From a virus: 64,000 nucleotides of DNA. The notes beneath the pieces were generated by a model. It did no database searches, had not been told where the DNA came from, and saw nothing but the letters and a program-made list of their open reading frames with translations. This document shows positions 22,311 through 54,698 of this stretch, one piece after another; position 1 is the first letter of the stretch, and each line of letters opens with the position of its first letter. The DNA lies in the IMG/VR virus record IMGVR_UViG_3300044729_002487, positions 1 to 64,000 of that record. One strand, 5' to 3'. The position numbers were made by a program, and so were the translations under genes.

Positions 22311-22342
22311 TTTGGTAATTTGAAAAATTATTCTTACCTTTA
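22311..22342 (+). promoter_or_regulatory. Bacteroidota sigma-A-like promoter
   Basis: TTTG(22311-14)-N20-TACCTTTA(22335-42); an ATATTTAT copy also lies just upstream (22296-22303). Confidence 0.6.
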
Positions 22343-27849: not shown

Positions 27850-27852
27850 TTT

Positions 27853-28203
27853 ATGAAAAATAAAACAACGGTTATATTATCATTAGTTATTGCTGTGTTA
27901 GTTTGTGTAATCATTATCATGTACACAACTAAACCATCTTATACAGATGCTAATGCAAAAGCTCAATATCAACATACTATTGATAGTTTGGATAATGTAA
28001 TTTTGAACTACAAACGCGATCAACTTGAATTGGATAAAAAAATTGCCGGATATGAATTAGATATCCGGCGATTGGATTTTCAAATTGATTCAGCGGAAAA
28101 CAAAATAATTGAAGTAAGAAACTATTATGCTGAACGAATTAAAAATGTTGGTCGTTTTTCTACTGCTGAGCTTGACGACTTTTTCTCAAAACGGTACAAA
28201 TAA
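27853..28203 (+). CDS. putative inner-membrane spanin-like protein
   Basis: N-terminal TM helix followed by a coiled coil; overlaps the next exported gene. Confidence 0.5.
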   Translation: MKNKTTVILSLVIAVLVCVIIIMYTTKPSYTDANAKAQYQHTIDSLDNVILNYKRDQLELDKKIAGYELDIRRLDFQIDSAENKIIEVRNYYAERIKNVGRFSTAELDDFFSKRYK

Positions 28204-34143: not shown

Positions 34144-34301
34144 TTCCAGATAGATCATGGCAACAATTTATTAAAGCCAAAGAAAATCAAAATTTACCAT
34201 TGCAAGAGCAAAAAAGGAAATATGCAGACGAACGAAAACGTTTTGAACAGCAAAGAGCATTCGTCAATTCTGGATTATTCATGCAAGGACTAAAAAAATG
34301 A
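34140..34301 (+). CDS. small hypothetical protein (53 aa), absent from the ORF track
   Basis: MIPDRSWQQFIKAKENQNLPLQEQKRKYADERKRFEQQRAFVNSGLFMQGLKK; ATGA overlaps at both ends; AAAGGA SD; fills the gap exactly. Confidence 0.7.
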   Translation: MIPDRSWQQFIKAKENQNLPLQEQKRKYADERKRFEQQRAFVNSGLFMQGLKK

Positions 34302-34903
34302 GTAAGCAATTATTAGTAGATTATACATTGTTTGAAGTATCGCCTCAACAAATAAATGAGTCATTAAATAATAATGGTGGCCGTTTAATTGTTAATGGTG
34401 TATTGCAACGAGCAGAAGCTAAGAATCAAAATGGACGTATCTATCCTAGAAACATATTAATGCGCGAAGCAAACAAATATGCTGATTCATTTATTAAAGA
34501 GCGTAGAGCGTTAGGAGAATTAGATCATCCAGATTCATCCGTTGTTAATTTGAACAATGTATCTCATAACGTATTAGATATGAAATGGCAAGGAAATGAC
34601 CTTGTTGGTACAGTTGAGGTATTATCTACCCCAGCTGGTAACATATTAAAAGAACTGTTCAAAGCAGGAATAAAACTAGGGATTTCGTCACGTGGAATGG
34701 GTTCGGTTAAGGAAGTTATGCGTGAAGGTGAAAATACTGTTGAGGTACAAGCTGACTTTGAACTTATTGCATTTGACTTTGTATCAAATCCATCTACTCA
34801 TGGAGCATTTTTATCACCAGTAAATGAGTCAGTTAACAGAGTGGTTGCAGATAAATATGCAAATGTTAATACGCTTATTTCTAACATAATTAGGGAGTTT
34901 TAA
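34298..34903 (+). CDS. gp21: prohead protease (T4 gp21-like)
   Basis: NQNGRIYP, ALGELDHP, GISSRGMGS, DFVSNPS. Confidence 0.95.
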   Translation: MSKQLLVDYTLFEVSPQQINESLNNNGGRLIVNGVLQRAEAKNQNGRIYPRNILMREANKYADSFIKERRALGELDHPDSSVVNLNNVSHNVLDMKWQGNDLVGTVEVLSTPAGNILKELFKAGIKLGISSRGMGSVKEVMREGENTVEVQADFELIAFDFVSNPSTHGAFLSPVNESVNRVVADKYANVNTLISNIIREF

Positions 34904-35708: not shown

Positions 35709-36479
35709 ATGAAATCGTGGGAACAACAATTAATGCGACATATCCTAAACGAAAAGTTTTTAGGAGAAGACGAAAAACCAGAACTGCGAAAAGAAGATAA
35801 AAAAGCATTTTTGGAGGCAGTTGCTAATTATCATCGTTTAGGTGAAATGGTATATGCTAAACGTGGTTTGAAAGAGGTTACTAAAACTGTACAAGGCATT
35901 GTTGAAAAAGCCGAAGCACTAACACTTCAAGAATCTGAGCATTGGTTTGACAATGTTACGGTATCGCGCCATATGAAACAATTGAAAGAAGCTTATAAGG
36001 TGTTTGAAAAAACAGCTGGTGAGATGTCTGGTCTGCAACAACGGTTAGAAGCAGCGTATGATGATATGGGTTCTATTTTAGGACGTTATTATAAAGTCGG
36101 TAATTCATTAAATGAAGATGATTATCAATATACAGCTGGCGTAGATGATGAAGGGCCTGCATTAGAAGAAGATACTTATACAGCTGGTGTAGATGACGAA
36201 GGTCCTGCATTAGAAGAAACTGCTAGAAAAAAAAAGTTATCGCGCTTAAACGAAGGCACTGATTATACGTTTTCGGGTACAGATAAATTCATGGATCGAG
36301 TTGCAGTCAACGTGTTTAAAAAACACGGCATCGGTCAGTCTAAGTTGAATCGTGAATATGATGCAAATGAGGGCATTGTTGAATTTACAGTAAATCTAGA
36401 AGATGCGTTAGTTAATAAAATTAGTAAAGAGCTTGAAACGGTTGATAGAGGTAAGGGAGAATATGGCGGATATTATTAA
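35709..36479 (+). CDS. hypothetical, probable internal head protein
   Basis: ILNE, LQE, LNE sites; tandem YTAGVDDEGPALEE repeat; AAGGA SD. Confidence 0.45.
   Translation: MKSWEQQLMRHILNEKFLGEDEKPELRKEDKKAFLEAVANYHRLGEMVYAKRGLKEVTKTVQGIVEKAEALTLQESEHWFDNVTVSRHMKQLKEAYKVFEKTAGEMSGLQQRLEAAYDDMGSILGRYYKVGNSLNEDDYQYTAGVDDEGPALEEDTYTAGVDDEGPALEETARKKKLSRLNEGTDYTFSGTDKFMDRVAVNVFKKHGIGQSKLNREYDANEGIVEFTVNLEDALVNKISKELETVDRGKGEYGGYY
36129..36218 (+). repeat. 42-nt direct repeat x2 (48-nt period) encoding YTAGVDDEGPALEE
   Basis: 36129-36170 and 36177-36218 differ only at synonymous positions. Confidence 0.9.
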
Positions 36480-36488
36480 TATAAAACA

Positions 36489-36520
36489 TTTGGTACTTTG
36501 AAATAAAGTTATTATATTTA
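36489..36520 (+). promoter_or_regulatory. Bacteroidota sigma-A-like promoter of bS21
   Basis: TTTG(36489-92)-N20-TATATTTA(36513-20). Confidence 0.65.
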
Positions 36521-36543
36521 AAGAGTTATTAATAAAAAAGTAT

Positions 36544-36798
36544 ATGAGTAAAATAGAAAAACGAATCGATCACATTATCCCAGGACAGACTCTGGGTGTT
36601 AAAGTTACTAAAACAAAAAGATTTCCAGAAGGCGACGTTAATGGAGCAATTTTAAAATGGAAACGAATGGTAAAGGATGCGGGTGTATTGGATGAAGTTA
36701 AAGACCGTCAGGAATTTAAAAAGAAGTCAATCGCTAAGCGTGATCAATTAAGTAAAGCCAAATATATACAAAAGATTCAAAGAGAAAATAATTTCTAA
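36544..36798 (+). CDS. rpsU: ribosomal protein bS21 homolog
   Basis: GDVNGAILKWKRMVKDAGVLDEVKDRQEFKKKSIAKR matches the bS21 pattern (ALrrFKr...G.l.e.r.r..f.KPS..r); basic, 84 aa; phage bS21 genes are known among head genes of large phages. Confidence 0.85.
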   Translation: MSKIEKRIDHIIPGQTLGVKVTKTKRFPEGDVNGAILKWKRMVKDAGVLDEVKDRQEFKKKSIAKRDQLSKAKYIQKIQRENNF

Positions 36799-36820
36799 AA
36801 AAATCTTAAAAAAGTTTTCC

Positions 36821-36958
36821 TAATTCGGTGGTTTAAACTCCTCGTGCAATATATATTATTGTAACATGATACTACGTTCCAATACGTAGTCACTCAAATA
36901 TTTTTATACTATCTATTAAGATTTCAAATAATCTTACTTCCGAATTAAATACGAGGAG
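36821..36958 (+). promoter_or_regulatory. structured 5' leader of scaffold/MCP operon
   Basis: Two perfect 7-bp hairpins with TCMAAT loops (36871-90, 36917-36); CTCCTCGT(36838-45) is complementary to the SD ACGAGGAG(36951-58); TAATTCGG(36821-28) is complementary to CCGAATTA(36940-47). Confidence 0.65.
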
Positions 36959-36966
36959 CAAATCAA

Positions 36967-37827
36967 ATGAGAGATTTATTAAAAGAAGCTATTGCTGACG
37001 CAAAAGCCGTAAGGGAAACTGCACTAGCTAACGCAAAAATTGCATTAGAAGAAGCATTCACTCCAAGACTTCAAAGCATGCTTTCTGCACGTTTAGCAGA
37101 AGAAGAAGAAATGGAAGAGCCTGAAATGACTGAAGAAGAAGAAATGGACATGGAAGAGCCTGTTGCCGAAGGTGATGAAGAAGATTACATGGCAGAGGAA
37201 GAGGAAATGGAAATGGAAGAAGGTGAAGACATGGAAATGGAAGAGCCTGTTTCTGAAGAAGAAGAGATGGATGCTGAGTTAGAAGAAATTCTTCGCGAAC
37301 TTGAAGGTAGCGATGAAGAGGAAATGACTGAAGAAGAAGAAATGGAAGAGCCAGTCGCTGAGGGCGAAGAGGAAGAAGAAGTTTCTATCGAAGAAGTAAT
37401 TCGTGCTTTACGTGAAGAAGAAGAAATGGAAGAAGAGCCAGTAACTGAAGAAGAGGAAGCTCCGGAAGCTGAAGCTGAATTGGAAGAAGCTATTCGAGTT
37501 ATCAAATTCTTAAAGTCTAAATTGAATGAAGTTAATCTTCTTAATGCAAAATTGTTATTCTCTAACAAGTTGTTTAGAAATTATCCGTTATCTGAAGCTC
37601 AGAAAATGAAAGTTATTGAAAACTTCGACCGAGCTAAATCAGTACGAGAAGTGAAATTAGTGTACGGTACAATTGCCGAATCATTAAAATCACCAAAAAC
37701 AAAACGACCAATGGTCAAAGAAAGCTATGCTTCAAAACCAAGCCGATCTACAGCTCCTAAAAAAGCTATCCTTTCTGAAGGAACTACATTGGCAGCACGT
37801 TGGAAAAAATTAGCTAATTTAAAGTAA
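36967..37827 (+). CDS. prohead core scaffolding protein (gp22-like)
   Basis: Glu-rich low-complexity coiled coil directly upstream of the capsid gene; strong GAGGAG SD. Confidence 0.8.
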   Translation: MRDLLKEAIADAKAVRETALANAKIALEEAFTPRLQSMLSARLAEEEEMEEPEMTEEEEMDMEEPVAEGDEEDYMAEEEEMEMEEGEDMEMEEPVSEEEEMDAELEEILRELEGSDEEEMTEEEEMEEPVAEGEEEEEVSIEEVIRALREEEEMEEEPVTEEEEAPEAEAELEEAIRVIKFLKSKLNEVNLLNAKLLFSNKLFRNYPLSEAQKMKVIENFDRAKSVREVKLVYGTIAESLKSPKTKRPMVKESYASKPSRSTAPKKAILSEGTTLAARWKKLANLK

Positions 37828-37849: not shown

Positions 37850-39577
37850 ATGAATTTGAATTCTTTATTACCTCATGATGCTCAAAGTACTCAAAACAAA
37901 GTTGCTATCGCTTTAGAAAAGAAGTGGCAACGTACAGGTCTTTTAGAAGGACTTGATAATGAGGTTGAGCGCAGAGGAATGGCGGTTCTATTAGAGAACC
38001 AAGCAAAACAATTGGTAACAGAAGCTAACGCAACTTCTACTTCTGCAAATGCTGAAGAGTGGGCTGGTGTTGCTTTACCATTAGTACGTCGTATCTTTGC
38101 TGAAATTGCAGCTAAAGATTTCGTTTCTGTACAACCTATGAACCTTCCTTCTGGACTAGTATTCTTCTTGGATTTCAAGTATGGTACCGCTCAGCAAGTA
38201 AAAGGATCTACCGCTGGTGGTAATGATTTTTTAACTGGCCAAGGACGTAAGTCTCAAGGTGATTCAGTATTTGGTATTACTGATGCTGGTGGTCTTGGAA
38301 CTGAGGCAGCTGGTGGAACTGCTCCATCCGAAGGTCTTTATGGTGCTGGACGTTTTGGTTATACAATCAATGACGTGACATCATCTACTTTCACATTGGC
38401 TAACTCTGTAACATCTGCTCGTACAGGATCTGTTGCAGTTGGTACTGGTGTATTCTCAAACGGTGGTAACTTAACAGGTGCTAGATTTGATTATGTTACT
38501 AACTACAATTCAGAATTATCTGCATCAGTAGTTTCTACCGGAGCTGGACCATTTACTATCTTATCAATTCCTACCGCATCATTGAGCAATCCTGACTTGA
38601 ATGGTCTTCGTGCATTCAACGTACAAGGTACTAACTTAGATGCTGTATATCCTGAATTCACTCGCCTTTCTAAAGGAAAAGGTCATATTGAATTCTTAGT
38701 TGAAGCTGATAGCGACTTGAATGCAGTAACAGTAATCTACCAAAAACAACCAGGTGCTGCTAGCCGTGGTGATTTTGAAGATCCAACTGCACTTACAAAT
38801 AACGTTAAAGCTGCTTATTTAGATATCCCAGAAATTAACTTGGAACTTCGTTCTGAAGCAATCGTTGCTAAGACTCGTAAGTTAAAAGCAATCTGGTCTC
38901 CTGAATTCGCTCAAGACCTTAACGCATACCACTCAATTGATGCTGAAGCTGAATTAACTTCTATGTTATCTGAGTACATCTCCCAAGAGATTGACCTAGA
39001 GATCTTAGACATGTTGATCCAAAATGCTCAGACAGTCGATCGTTGGTCTGCTAAAATTGGTTTTGAGTGGTCTGCCGCTTCTAACTCATTCGTTCAGTCT
39101 AATGCTACTGCTCAAGCATACAACCAAGGAACTTGGTTCCAAACATTAGGAACTAAAATCCAGAAAGTAAGCAACCGTATTCACCAATTAACAGTACGTG
39201 GTGGAGCAAACTTCTTAGTATGTTCTCCATCTGTAGCTACTATCCTTGAGTCAATCCCAGGATATGCTGCTGATACTGATGGTGATAAAATGCAGTTTGC
39301 AATGGGTGTACAAAAAGTTGGTGCTATTAATAATAGATTCCAAGTTTATAAAAACCCATACATGACTGAAAATGTAATCCTTATGGGTTATAGAGGATCT
39401 CAATTCCTTGAAACAGGTGCTGTATATGCTCCATATGTTCCGTTGATCATGACTCCATTAGTGTACGATCCTAACAACTTTACACCAAGAAAAGGTGTTA
39501 TGACTCGTTACGCTAAGAAAATGGTTCGTCCAGAATTCTACGGAAAAGTATATGTTTCTGCATTGGATACCATCTAA
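37850..39577 (+). CDS. gp23: major capsid protein (T4 gp23-like)
   Basis: VSVQPMNLPSGLVF, AKTRKLKAIWSPEFAQDLNAYHSIDAEAEL, YAPYVPL, FTPRKGVMTRY. Confidence 0.97.
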   Translation: MNLNSLLPHDAQSTQNKVAIALEKKWQRTGLLEGLDNEVERRGMAVLLENQAKQLVTEANATSTSANAEEWAGVALPLVRRIFAEIAAKDFVSVQPMNLPSGLVFFLDFKYGTAQQVKGSTAGGNDFLTGQGRKSQGDSVFGITDAGGLGTEAAGGTAPSEGLYGAGRFGYTINDVTSSTFTLANSVTSARTGSVAVGTGVFSNGGNLTGARFDYVTNYNSELSASVVSTGAGPFTILSIPTASLSNPDLNGLRAFNVQGTNLDAVYPEFTRLSKGKGHIEFLVEADSDLNAVTVIYQKQPGAASRGDFEDPTALTNNVKAAYLDIPEINLELRSEAIVAKTRKLKAIWSPEFAQDLNAYHSIDAEAELTSMLSEYISQEIDLEILDMLIQNAQTVDRWSAKIGFEWSAASNSFVQSNATAQAYNQGTWFQTLGTKIQKVSNRIHQLTVRGGANFLVCSPSVATILESIPGYAADTDGDKMQFAMGVQKVGAINNRFQVYKNPYMTENVILMGYRGSQFLETGAVYAPYVPLIMTPLVYDPNNFTPRKGVMTRYAKKMVRPEFYGKVYVSALDTI

Positions 39578-39622
39578 TAGTTATTTAGTAATTGACAAAT
39601 GACAATTGCTTAATGCGAGAAA

Positions 39623-39646
39623 GGGAGGCTTCGGTCTCCCTTTTTT
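39623..39646 (+). terminator. intrinsic terminator after MCP
   Basis: GGGAGGC-TTCG-GTCTCCC followed by T6; cUUCGg tetraloop. Confidence 0.92.
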
Positions 39647-39693
39647 ACTATCGTAACACATGTAACTACATATTTATATTAAAAGGAAAAAGT

Positions 39694-40095
39694 ATGTCCG
39701 CAGGAAGATATTCGTTTGTCATTGAACAAGGTGCAACTTTAGATTTAGAAATCGTTTATAAAGATGCATCAGGTACGCCTGTAAATTTATCCGGATATAC
39801 CGCTGCGATGCAGATACGAAATACTCAAGGCGGTTCGACATTATATGCTACATTAACATCGAGTTTAGGTAATGTATATAATAAAAAATCAGGATCGGCA
39901 TTTTTAAGTTTATCAGGAAGTACATTAGCAAAACCATTGGCATCAGGAAGTATTGGTGTATATATAGGTCACACTGTAACTAATGGATTTACGTTTAACG
40001 AAGGTTATTATGATTTAGAGTTAACTAATGGTCAAACTCGAGTTCGATTATTAGAAGGTAAAGTTCAAGTATTAAAGCAGGTGACTACAGTATAA
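39694..40095 (+). CDS. Ig/BppU-like virion protein (true start 39694)
   Basis: IEQGATL..VNLSGYTAAMQIR..YYDLEL..RLLEGKV; ATG follows ATATTTAT and AAAGGA, downstream of the terminator. Confidence 0.6.
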   Translation: MSAGRYSFVIEQGATLDLEIVYKDASGTPVNLSGYTAAMQIRNTQGGSTLYATLTSSLGNVYNKKSGSAFLSLSGSTLAKPLASGSIGVYIGHTVTNGFTFNEGYYDLELTNGQTRVRLLEGKVQVLKQVTTV

Positions 40096-42096: not shown

Positions 42097-44136
42097 ATGC
42101 CATCTTGGAAAAAGGTCATTACATCTGGCTCTAATGCCTCATTAAATTCTTTATATGCACCAAGCATTACTGGGTCTTTATTAGGAACTGCATCATATGC
42201 ACTAACAGCATCATATTCAAATAATTTACAAATATCGGGTTCAATTAACAATGTAAATTATATTGATTTTAATACTAGCGCATCAATCCCGCCATATCAA
42301 AATGGTAGAATATTTTGGGATAATACAGAAGGTGCACTATCTGTGTATAATTCAGAAGCTGATGTTACTTTACAAGTAGGACAAGAGAATTGGACTCGAG
42401 TGTATAACGATACTGTAGCTACTATCGCAAATGGAGCTCCAGTACGAATTATAGGAACACATGGCGATCATCCAGAAGTGGTATTAGCCGCATCCATACG
42501 AGTATCAGGAAGTTCTAATTTAGTTAATCAGATTTTAGGTTTAGCAACTCATGATATTGAAGCTGGTACATTCGGATATGTAACTACGCAAGGATTAGTA
42601 AGAGGTGTAAATACTTCAGCATTTAATGATGGAGATACTCTATACCTTTCTTCATCGGCAGGACAATTAACATCAACAGTACCGTCAGCACCTTATGAAA
42701 TCGTACCAGTAGGACAAGTTGTAAAAGCAAGTCCCGGAGGAAGTGGTATTATTTATGTTGCAGTTCAACAACCATTAGACTTTACAGATTTAAGTTCTGT
42801 TGCATTAGGGTTAGGAACATATCAAGATGGAGATATTTGGACATATTATGGCCCTACGAAACAATGGAGACATCAAAAACAACTTTCAGGCTCGTATGGT
42901 ATCACAGGATCATTATCAGTACGAGGTAACACCGGTGTTAACGTATTAAATACAAAAACATATACATTACGCGGATCCGGCCCTAGTGCTAGCGTTGACT
43001 GGGAAAGCCGTACATTAAATAATACAGCCGGTACAGCAGTTCTTAACTGGAGAACTTTACAAGGAAGAGATGCTAACAGCAAATTATCATATGAATGGAA
43101 TGTACGTAAATTATATGATGCAAGTGCCACTCAATCGATTGATTGGCGCATACGCACTGCATATGATACATTAGGCACAGGATCAGTTTTATGGAACGAC
43201 CGCCAATTAAGAGATTCGTCATTTAACAGATCCGTAGTATGGAGTACTCGAGTCACATATGACGATGGTAACCGCATATCAATTGATTGGAAAAACCGAC
43301 AATTAATTAATAGTTCTGGTACTATCGCGGTATTGGATTGGCAAACGCAACGAGCATTTAGCACTACTACGTCGCAATCCATTGACTGGAATAATCGAAT
43401 TTTAACTGATGATGGAACGCCGGCTGGAGGCGGGCCACCTCAGACAGCAGTTGACTGGCAAAATCGAGCGCTGAATGATTCGGTTGCTGTGACATCAATT
43501 GACTGGGCCGGTAGAGCTTTATATGATCCAGCTGGCATCCCATCAATTGACTATCGCGGCCGAGATCTCCTTGATTCCACCGGCATAACAGCACTGAATT
43601 ATAATATCACATCTAACGTATCCGCAGTTCAGCAAACTGCCTGGACACGTGCATTGATAGATATTCCGACTGTCGCTGAACCATTAGCATATTGGTCAAA
43701 TTATGGTAAATATCTTCCTACCGGTGAAATACTTGCCAGCGTAACATTTGATGGTTCAGTTGTGGATTATGATTTAGTTGGTATGCGTGAAGATGGAATA
43801 TGGTATTCGCAAGATGCCTCATCAGCAAATGTCGCAACAAAATTATTAGGATTAGCTTTTAATGTTGCCAATGGTGACAACGTATTATTAGAAGGTACTG
43901 CAGTCGTTGCATCTAGTTCATTTGGTAGTGCGTTTCCTAAAGTTGATAAGTTACAATTTGGTGCACCTGTATATCTTAATACAACATCATCTGCCGGTAA
44001 TTACATGTCAACTACGGCACCATCATTATCCGGTCAATTTGTACGAATAATAGGACATGTATATTATCGTAGTACAAATGATCCAGATTTCTATCTAATA
44101 AAATTTAAACCTTCACATGAGTGGTATGAGATATGA
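42097..44136 (+). CDS. tail fibre-like protein with central 16-aa Trp repeats
   Basis: MPSWKKVITSGSN start; GYVTTQGLVRGVNT..GDTLYLS domain; 13 copies of SIDWxxRxLxD. Confidence 0.65.
   Translation: MPSWKKVITSGSNASLNSLYAPSITGSLLGTASYALTASYSNNLQISGSINNVNYIDFNTSASIPPYQNGRIFWDNTEGALSVYNSEADVTLQVGQENWTRVYNDTVATIANGAPVRIIGTHGDHPEVVLAASIRVSGSSNLVNQILGLATHDIEAGTFGYVTTQGLVRGVNTSAFNDGDTLYLSSSAGQLTSTVPSAPYEIVPVGQVVKASPGGSGIIYVAVQQPLDFTDLSSVALGLGTYQDGDIWTYYGPTKQWRHQKQLSGSYGITGSLSVRGNTGVNVLNTKTYTLRGSGPSASVDWESRTLNNTAGTAVLNWRTLQGRDANSKLSYEWNVRKLYDASATQSIDWRIRTAYDTLGTGSVLWNDRQLRDSSFNRSVVWSTRVTYDDGNRISIDWKNRQLINSSGTIAVLDWQTQRAFSTTTSQSIDWNNRILTDDGTPAGGGPPQTAVDWQNRALNDSVAVTSIDWAGRALYDPAGIPSIDYRGRDLLDSTGITALNYNITSNVSAVQQTAWTRALIDIPTVAEPLAYWSNYGKYLPTGEILASVTFDGSVVDYDLVGMREDGIWYSQDASSANVATKLLGLAFNVANGDNVLLEGTAVVASSSFGSAFPKVDKLQFGAPVYLNTTSSAGNYMSTTAPSLSGQFVRIIGHVYYRSTNDPDFYLIKFKPSHEWYEI
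42991..43602 (+). repeat. 13 degenerate ~16-aa repeats (S-I-D-W-x-x-R-x-L-x-D-x-x-G)
   Basis: SVDW, VLNW, SYEW, SIDW, SVLW, SVVW, SIDW, VLDW, SIDW, AVDW, SIDW, SIDY, ALNY at about 16-aa spacing. Confidence 0.85.
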
Positions 44137-54461: not shown

Positions 54462-54669
54462 GTTAAATGTATATGACCAGATATTTGATCTGGTTTATTA
54501 TGGAAAAGGTTTTTCATATTCGGACGTAACGGAAATGCCTGTATATCTTCGTGTATACTATATTAACAAGATAAACAAAATTTTCAAAGATCGTAATAAA
54601 GCCCAGGAAAAGGCTAATAGACAAGCACAAGTATCTAAGAAGGCATCACCACCTAAATTTCGTAGATAG
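54436..54669 (+). CDS. gp51/gpT-like chaperone extension, probably reached by frameshift
   Basis: 77-codon +1 frame ORF FFGLTQKYRLNVYDQIFDLVYYGKGFSYSDVTEMPVYLRVYYI..; begins in a T7 run and has no ATG/GTG/TTG before 54535. Confidence 0.65.
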   Translation, partial: FFGLTQKYRLNVYDQIFDLVYYGKGFSYSDVTEMPVYLRVYYINKINKIFKDRNKAQEKANRQAQVSKKASPPKFRR

Positions 54670-54698
54670 TCATATTTATTAAAAAGAAAAGGTAAAGT

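Follow-up and report, generated by a model that had tools for sequence, protein, structure and literature searches.

The sequence considered here is a 64,000-nucleotide (nt) stretch of viral DNA (positions 1 to 64,000 of IMG/VR record IMGVR_UViG_3300044729_002487, hereafter the window), and the element under study is an RNA leader located between a gene for ribosomal protein bS21 and a gene taken to encode the prohead scaffold of a T4-like phage. The phage was classed as T4-like by its gp21-family and gp23-family proteins, and the plus strand carries all 54 of the open reading frames (ORFs) called in the window. The habitat is fresh water; the DNA and RNA runs that contain window sequence are lake or freshwater metagenomes. 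The head region comprises, all on the plus strand, a prohead protease of the gp21 type (34298-34903; Pfam PF03420), the bS21 gene (36544-36798; 84 amino acids, aa) as the upstream neighbour of the leader, a bS21-to-scaffold spacer of 168 nt, a gene for an acidic protein of 286 aa (36967-37827), and the gene for the major capsid protein (MCP) of the gp23 family (37850-39577; PF07068, 263 bits). Membership of the bS21 family was indicated by a PF01165 score of 28.9 bits, above the curated cut-off of 27, by PHROG 21469 (ribosomal protein S21), and by solved structures, among which bS21 chains were the top matches. The closest of these were two short bS21 chains, 9i5v_9 (E 5.7e-6) and 7jil_z (E 2.2e-4), the latter belonging to what we take to be the Flavobacterium johnsoniae ribosome. 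The acidic 286-aa protein had no Pfam or PHROG match, gp22 family included, and is taken to be the prohead scaffold, in the gp22 position, by its place between the gp21-type protease and the gp23-type MCP and by its acidic composition only. Because the MCP gene starts 22 nt after the scaffold gene and that short spacer is without an ATATTTATW-type promoter motif, the leader probably heads both genes; one RNA contig bridges the scaffold-MCP junction, which is not proof of one transcript. According to the MCP, the nearest cultured phages are Microcystis phage Mel-JY01 (58%), Flavobacterium phage immuto (55%), and Rhodothermus phage RM378 (36%). The core of the observation is a robust new RNA motif family, to which the leader of this scaffold gene belongs.

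The 168-nt spacer folds at -36.3 kcal/mol (z = -4.5, with 0 of 200 shuffles equal to it), and in this fold a helix between the Shine-Dalgarno (SD) region and an upstream complement, the anti-SD, encloses two hairpins. Hairpin 1 (HP1; ACTACGT-TCCAAT-ACGTAGT, 36871-36890, plus strand, -7.9 kcal/mol) has a 7-bp stem and the loop UCCAAU. Hairpin 2 (HP2; TAAGATT-TCAAAT-AATCTTA, 36917-36936, plus strand, -4.4 kcal/mol) follows UAU at 36914-16 and has a 7-bp stem with one G-C pair and the loop UCAAAU. From the window sequence alone the hairpins are mildly unusual: when the spacer was dinucleotide-shuffled 5000 times, two or more perfect 7-bp hairpins were present in 3.0% of the shuffles, and one such hairpin in 13%. 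The evolution of the hairpins was followed in leaders collected through an MCP search of IMG/VR; this search returned 570 relatives, and the best 80, with loci numbered L001 onward, were retained. Forty-seven distinct leaders were aligned with MAFFT and, separately, 73 distinct leaders were aligned to a covariance model; the model-fitted 73-leader alignment leans toward structure, while the MAFFT result is independent of the model.

RNAalifold, run unprompted on the MAFFT alignment, predicted only HP1 and HP2, with compensatory changes at 9 of 13 pairs. In this alignment of 47 leaders, 91.8% of cells were paired in HP1 and 98.2% in HP2, with double changes at six of seven and four of seven pairs, respectively, and the covariation score was 0.314 compared with 0.165 for shuffled alignments (0/500 as high) and 0.065-0.129 with the partners slid. 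The 73-leader alignment gave 96.1% paired cells and double changes at 5/6 pairs for HP1, 100% and 5/7 for HP2, and 98.2% and 10/13 for both helices together, with a covariation score of 0.599 against 0.225 for shuffled alignments (again 0/500 as high) and at most 0.107 with the partners slid. G-U pairs occurred in both helices (e.g. 10 at one HP2 pair), as expected of plus-strand RNA. HP1 and HP2 are real RNA structures maintained by compensatory evolution, and a structure with compensatory support at a fixed place before one gene identifies the element as a structured cis-regulatory leader. An earlier note on this DNA had listed a series of strings, every one of which is present at the positions it gave, had described the spacer as a multi-hairpin leader of the scaffold and MCP genes, and had proposed covariation across related phages as a check. 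Covariation counted on the 47 and the 73 distinct leaders bore out the description: both 7-bp hairpins covary, with none of the 500 shuffles as high in either alignment, and the loops are conserved.

Conservation extends to particular letters of the leader (percentages are for the 73 leaders). The loop of HP1 ends in A (97%), A (89%), and U (99%), followed by A (90%), and the AAU that ends the HP2 loop, together with the next A (the first of the 3' arm), is invariant in 73 of 73 leaders, the preceding three loop letters varying freely. The nearly identical repeated loops pointed out in the earlier note are thus a family trait, with both loops ending in a near-invariant AAU. A third TCAAATA (36894-36900), which had been noted beside the two loops, does not stand out from chance: its columns are only 58-81% identical and the AAU is not kept. 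Most of this string falls in a variable, poorly conserved spacer (36896-36913, plus strand), next to GUCACUC at the 3' foot of HP1 (36889-36895, plus strand), the alignment columns of which are 58-100% conserved. The UAU ahead of HP2 is 89-100% conserved. From HP2 to the SD run CUUCC, for which the family consensus is UUUCC (87-96% conserved), and an A/U-rich tract (36937-36950, plus strand), and these are followed by the SD region ACGAGGAG (36951-36958, plus strand), the complement of the anti-SD, 8 nt before the ATG at 36967. Four of the five positions of the SD core aGGAg are 88-96% conserved, and its final G 60%.

HP2 and its flanks stand at a fixed place 22-30 nt ahead of the start codon. 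No fixed distance separates HP1 from HP2, and in several clades an additional hairpin is inserted between them. Three different additional hairpins were distinguished by clade, one in L035, L039, L043, L045, and L079, another in L046, L056, L071, and L074-76, and the other in L057, L080, and L062. A third local hairpin, UUUCC:GGAGA, was also considered; 87.6% of its cells were paired, compared with 88.0% in shuffles, and no double changes were found, which is no evidence either way. A conserved small ORF within the leader was rejected, as the ATG at 36867 opens just seven codons and is not kept in relatives.

The order bS21 then scaffold was found in 56 of the 80 loci and in the window, and the spacer measures 136-205 nt in 47 of these 57; longer bS21-scaffold spacers contain an additional small ORF. 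The leader is tied to the scaffold gene rather than to bS21, because it is kept both with an ORF inserted after bS21 and without bS21. The covariance model gave 70 matches among 83 sources, at most one per source, each ending at the scaffold start codon. Thirteen sources were unmatched, namely 11 loci that start within the scaffold gene and the two distant phages immuto and Mel-JY01. In the 85.5-kb contig of the window there is a single match to the model (36867-36969, 103 bits), and a second copy of the leader element was found neither in the window nor in that contig. A repeat search with the Mel-JY01 MCP as query added 74 further loci; 52 of these have full-length model matches, with scores as low as 25 bits and, as before, a position about 1 kb ahead of the MCP gene. 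Furthermore, the exact 28-nt pattern formed by HP2 and UUUCC is present in at least 120 IMG/VR contigs; among 80 of these that were fetched, the MCP gene lies 0.9-1.4 kb downstream on the same strand in 63, and the other 17 are too short, with no exceptions. Inspection by eye showed the promoter motif described below, a first hairpin, and a second hairpin with an AAU-ending loop and then A in immuto, in Mel-JY01, and in a clade with no bS21 found; the second hairpin lies 22-23 nt before the start codon, and UUUCC is absent from these leaders. HP2 is accordingly the oldest part of the element, since it is kept in the distant immuto and Mel-JY01 and in that clade.

A search of the whole window against Rfam release 15 returned no matches at gathering scores, and just three of chance level (E 6-9.9) in 36480-37000. 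Comparison of the leader DNA with GenBank cultured phages by blastn produced hits that cover coding parts only, and no relevant account of a scaffold or capsid leader motif turned up in literature searches. The leader belongs to a large and, going by these searches, apparently undescribed family of phage leader RNAs present in hundreds of contigs. Some members differ in their surroundings. In L050, L051, L067, and L073 an extra stretch after bS21, within a range of 280-456 nt, consists of a small ORF with a hydrophobic product and then a terminator, and L008, L010, and L011 likewise carry an extra stretch in that range. In phage immuto (GenBank MW353175; L081) immuto26A_203 (L081 2370-2462), annotated as a 30-aa hypothetical protein, lies inside the equivalent of the scaffold leader, with its late motif and two hairpins, and is unlikely to be a gene, while immuto26A_204, annotated as 'DNA polymerase phi-like protein' (L081 2490-3731), occupies the scaffold position ahead of the MCP gene.

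The motif ATATTTATW has 23 matches in the window (4197 to 60427), 23 of 23 on the plus (coding) strand, compared with an expectation of 11.0 for the two strands combined. The majority lie 16-90 nt ahead of ORF starts, and many just 16-20 nt from an ATG. By analogy, ATATTTATW is probably the core of the late promoter of the phage; the T4 late promoter consensus is quoted in a passage of PMC3014915. On that reading, the leaders of many late genes would measure only about 10-15 nt. At the scaffold gene the gap from motif to ATG is about 110 nt, versus 16-20 nt at other motif genes. The motif here is the one-base variant ATATATATT (36849-36857, plus strand), and canonical ATATTTATW stands in the same alignment column in L010, L020, L022-24, and L029. 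The variant late motif that had been noticed just 3' of the anti-SD, ATATATAT (36849-56), is one base off a recurrent motif and aligned with its canonical form in relatives, and 36849-57 is taken, on this analogy, to be the late promoter that serves the scaffold-MCP unit. From the promoter position, transcription would start in the region 36860-36870 (plus strand).

Among the contig pieces listed, near-identical metatranscriptome contigs from three runs of three studies start at 36872 (X8, 0 differences), 36883 (X9, 0), and 36893 (X16, 1), a weak hint of an RNA start between the promoter and HP1. RNA contigs continue through HP2 into the scaffold gene without a break. In four metatranscriptome runs there is no contig cover at 36638-36771, which is not evidence of absence. 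Runs X8, X9, and X16 also contain the same RNA contig joining the scaffold coding sequence at 36976 to another leader, one rich in A and C and lacking an SD, which suggests a co-occurring relative with an immuto-like leader. Ahead of bS21 lies a promoter-like composite, a TTTGGTACTTTGAAA box and then TTATTATATTTA (36489-36525, plus strand). It belongs to a second, small promoter-like class in which a TTTGGTACTTTRAAA box stands about 10 nt ahead of TTATTATATTTA; the box pattern has five matches in the window, all on the plus strand, versus 0.67 expected. Sites 28567, 36490, and 63251 share both halves of the composite, and variants are found at 22312 and 48102.

Elsewhere in the window, a structured leader before the gene at 42097 was considered and rejected (z = -0.19, nothing there). 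The ORF at 39592-40095 begins at TTG, and a late-type motif at 39670 with an in-frame ATG about 100 nt inside suggests a shorter gene from about 39694. Two other long gaps between ORF calls, 27850-28126 (277 nt) and 54462-54698 (237 nt), look like short unlisted ORFs, not leaders.

The anti-SD CTCCTCGT (36838-36845, plus strand) is a perfect 8-bp complement of the SD region and ends 4 nt before the promoter motif, and is thereby excluded from RNA starting there. The anti-SD:SD duplex has an energy of -18.0 kcal/mol, a value that 0.7% of 300 random segments of equal length from the locus reach or surpass, and in a 465-nt RNA from the promoter-like site of bS21 the SD is predicted to pair with the anti-SD at a probability of about 0.8. 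A scan of 36300-37100 found no terminator-like site between bS21 and the scaffold gene. Across relatives, the two nearest clades have an anti-SD abutting the promoter in 11 of their 13 leaders: a CTCCTCG-type anti-SD with a GAGGAG SD occurs in the window, L001, L003, L006, L008, and L011, and a TTCCTTG-type anti-SD with a GAGGAA SD in L015, L019, L021, L024, and L026, the anti-SD being absent from L010 and L013. The last SD letter and the first anti-SD letter change together between the two clades, which amounts to one compensatory event. On the MAFFT alignment, poorly aligned in this region, the anti-SD helix is 58.9% paired. The anti-SD is confined to the clade of the window and its nearest neighbours, outside the conserved core of the family, and many other leaders have an intrinsic terminator after bS21 instead.

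Two features of a lock of the T4 gene e type, an SD paired upstream in the longer RNA and a late promoter placed to drop the 5' arm, were found in silico and by motif position, respectively, and a clade-specific lock of this kind is plausible on the predicted folds. The earlier note had held that RNA reading through from the bS21 promoter is translationally locked and that a late transcript drops the anti-SD. The former is plausible for the window's own clade, the anti-SD being predicted in silico to sequester the SD of read-through RNA, and does not extend to the wider family; the latter agrees with the layout, as the anti-SD lies 5' of the promoter motif and RNA started there would lack it. 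A further pairing had been proposed, in which TAATTCGG (36821-36828, plus strand) joins CCGAATTA (36940-47) as a pseudoknot or alternative fold. It is judged a chance complement: one or more long-range 8-mer complements arise in 32% of 5000 spacer shuffles, the pairing has a probability of 0.0 in the 465-nt read-through RNA, and of the relatives only the nearest two, L003 and L006, retain it, while it is lost in L001, L008, L010, and L011 (-1.4 to -3.6 kcal/mol). CCGAATTA is itself conserved because it lies inside the conserved UUUCC-A/U tract. Another long-range complement, AAATCTTAA (36801-09) with TTAAGATTT (36916-24), is not kept in L003 or L006 and was treated as chance.

With somewhat better than even confidence, we regard 36863-36966 as the 5' leader of a late scaffold-MCP mRNA and as a post-transcriptional control module, to which a clade-specific lock has been added; the leader probably controls scaffold and capsid protein output late in infection. 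Transcription would start a few bases past the variant late-type promoter at 36849-57, placing HP1 near the 5' end, where it would shield that end and supply a second copy of the loop motif. HP2 and its flanks would be the place where a trans-acting factor docks in a sequence-specific manner; this factor, a protein or else the platform side of the 30S subunit, would set initiation at the start codon of the scaffold gene. Because letters are fixed while stems change, a specific reader of the RNA is favoured over a stabiliser or insulator, and a docking site for a protein or the ribosome is favoured because HP2, 22-30 nt upstream, coincides with the 5' edge of a bound 30S subunit. In the window and its nearest relatives the anti-SD at 36838-45 would add a layer by pairing with the SD in RNA reading through from bS21, so that promoter-proximal transcripts alone would be translated well, as with T4 gene e.

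Several results weigh against parts of this interpretation. The strong sequence conservation could have a cause other than a trans-acting factor. RNA from 36860 on folds at -17.6 kcal/mol with z = -1.8, and 9 of 200 shuffles are as stable; in the predicted late RNA, CUUCC pairs weakly with GGAG and the SD is partly occupied. The RNA data are assembled contigs, which cannot show true ends. With regard to the lock, a strong anti-SD duplex (-8.9 kcal/mol or lower) is present in just 13 of 75 scored leaders, the registers of the anti-SD differ by about 3 nt between clades, which precludes column-wise covariation, and the idea that terminator and anti-SD are mutually exclusive was dropped (3/10 vs 31/31; Fisher p = 0.12, with related sequences counted as independent). 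Furthermore, the TTATTATATTTA half of the composite before bS21 is a near-copy of the late motif, so that bS21 is perhaps not expressed earlier, which weakens the timing of the lock.

Among other explanations, a purely cis-acting leader is unlikely and yet deserves serious attention. HP1 would then be a 5' stabiliser and HP2 would keep the A/U tract and SD single-stranded as a standby site or enhancer, with no specific factor, which is in keeping with the position of HP1 near the inferred 5' end, with free HP1-HP2 spacing and an additional hairpin in some clades, and with a leader that heads the genes of the most abundant head proteins where other late-motif genes have very short leaders. However, a stabiliser needs no invariant letters, and AAU, UAU, and UUUCC are 87-100% conserved despite changed stems; the SD in the late RNA is, moreover, predicted to be partly paired, not open. 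Both hairpins end their loops alike and in conserved letters, and the element is strictly linked to the scaffold gene, which would also suit the operator suggested in the earlier note, with the repeated loops serving autoregulation by the scaffold protein (or MCP or bS21) in the manner of P22, whose scaffold autoregulation is reportedly in print. We consider this doubtful, as nothing singles out the scaffold protein over other factors, that protein is without a match to a known RNA-binding family in Pfam or PHROG, and bS21 is ruled out as a universal ligand by the retention of HP2 in bS21-free immuto (a complete genome) and in the L132-type clade.

That UUU(CC) comes after HP2 in most family members could point instead to a transcription attenuator or an RNase processing site made of HP2 and a U-rich run. 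Such a role is very improbable here: the terminator scan of 36300-37100 was empty and HP2 does not qualify as an intrinsic terminator, its stem is weak (-4.4 kcal/mol), the run in the window is CUUCC, and RNA contigs pass HP2 into the gene unbroken. Functionless chance inverted repeats in an AT-rich spacer would account for a single perfect 7-bp hairpin, given the 13% of spacer shuffles that contain one, but are contradicted by the covariation and the family-wide conservation and can be practically dismissed.

The adjoining bS21 gene raises the question of ribosome selectivity. Phage bS21 has been proposed to redirect ribosomes to phage mRNAs in passages of PMC9976891 and PMC9723584, and those passages draw no link between phage bS21 and the use of SDs by phage genes. 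In a passage of Chen et al. (PMC9723584) a tyrosine of bS21 is discussed as helping to block the anti-SD, and the bS21 of the window retains a tyrosine aligned with that residue. Strong SD cores, defined as GGAG or GAGG 4-18 nt ahead of the start, were counted in the window's own contig, in loci L001-L156, and in 100-150 kb of immuto (L278). They precede 141 of 404 gene starts (35%, versus 4.9% of random positions) in bS21 group A, 42 of 118 (36% versus 3.6%) in group B, and 9 of 26 (35% versus 4.3%) in group C; in the clade where no bS21 was found the values were 5 of 62 (8% versus 2.6%), and in phage immuto 1 of 52 (2% versus 10%). When SDs are defined loosely, enrichment persists in the clade with no bS21 found (0.37 versus 0.06), for which strict cores give 0.08. 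A bS21 gene was found neither in the complete immuto genome nor in the complete 297-kb record behind L132, and the scaffold leader of bS21-free Flavobacterium phage immuto is without an SD. The bS21 gene of the window has no SD-like motif ahead of its own ATG (AATAAAAAAGTATATG, 36526-36546), unlike the adjacent scaffold gene. The pattern is suggestive only: phage bS21 goes with SD-led translation, or hosts differ. We hold it improbable, though worth keeping in mind, that HP2, the UUUCC tract, and the strong SD form a selectivity element for phage-bS21 ribosomes on the scaffold/MCP mRNA in a Bacteroidota host that ignores SDs; differing hosts explain the SD pattern equally well, and HP2 is also kept without bS21.

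Taken as a late control module, the leader adds a widespread and well-supported motif to the small set of structured phage late-gene leaders, and does so in abundant uncultured T4-like phages of aquatic habitats. It offers a handle on how the output of scaffold and capsid protein is set, and a specific binding partner is to be expected from the fixed letters of its loops. The adjoining phage bS21 gene and the SD-rich genomes make the role of phage bS21 testable with one defined mRNA. The anti-SD, for its part, suggests that the T4-style hiding of a ribosome site from read-through RNA may act over about 100 nt and on a structural gene.

With respect to known systems, the families of Rfam release 15 offer no likeness, the motif being absent from that library. 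The 5'-terminal stabiliser hairpins of the ompA type belong to long-lived bacterial mRNAs. They resemble the leader in having a hairpin within about 10 nt of the 5' end (here inferred) of a highly expressed mRNA, and differ from it in that the conserved loop letters seen here are not expected of a pure stabiliser. Scaffolding protein of phage P22 is said to regulate its own synthesis post-transcriptionally, reportedly described by Wyckoff and Casjens and by Casjens and Adams in 1985; a head scaffold gene and post-transcriptional control would be common to both cases, a likeness that is not known to extend to sequence or structure. Translational operators are also known in T4 for gp32 and gp43, the latter with a hairpin loop of fixed letters. 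Such operators are small RNA elements that a phage protein reads at the initiation region or ahead of it, as may hold for the leader; they act on early or middle genes and overlap the initiation region, whereas the element found here precedes a late structural gene with its hairpin 30-50 nt upstream. RegA, a further T4 translational repressor system, is described in a passage of PMC3014915. The closest parallel to the lock is provided by the T4 genes e, soc, 49, and I-TevI, in which, according to passages of PMC3014915, the longer early or middle transcripts hide the ribosome-binding site and transcripts from a late promoter inside or beside the 5' arm expose it. Compared with these local stem-loops, the arms in the window are about 105 nt apart and enclose two hairpins, the gene is a head scaffold gene and not a lysis or homing gene, and the arrangement is limited to the nearest clades and read from sequence alone. 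The design would nevertheless be alike, with an SD complementary to an upstream segment, a late-type promoter between the two, and a short RNA without the inhibitory arm.

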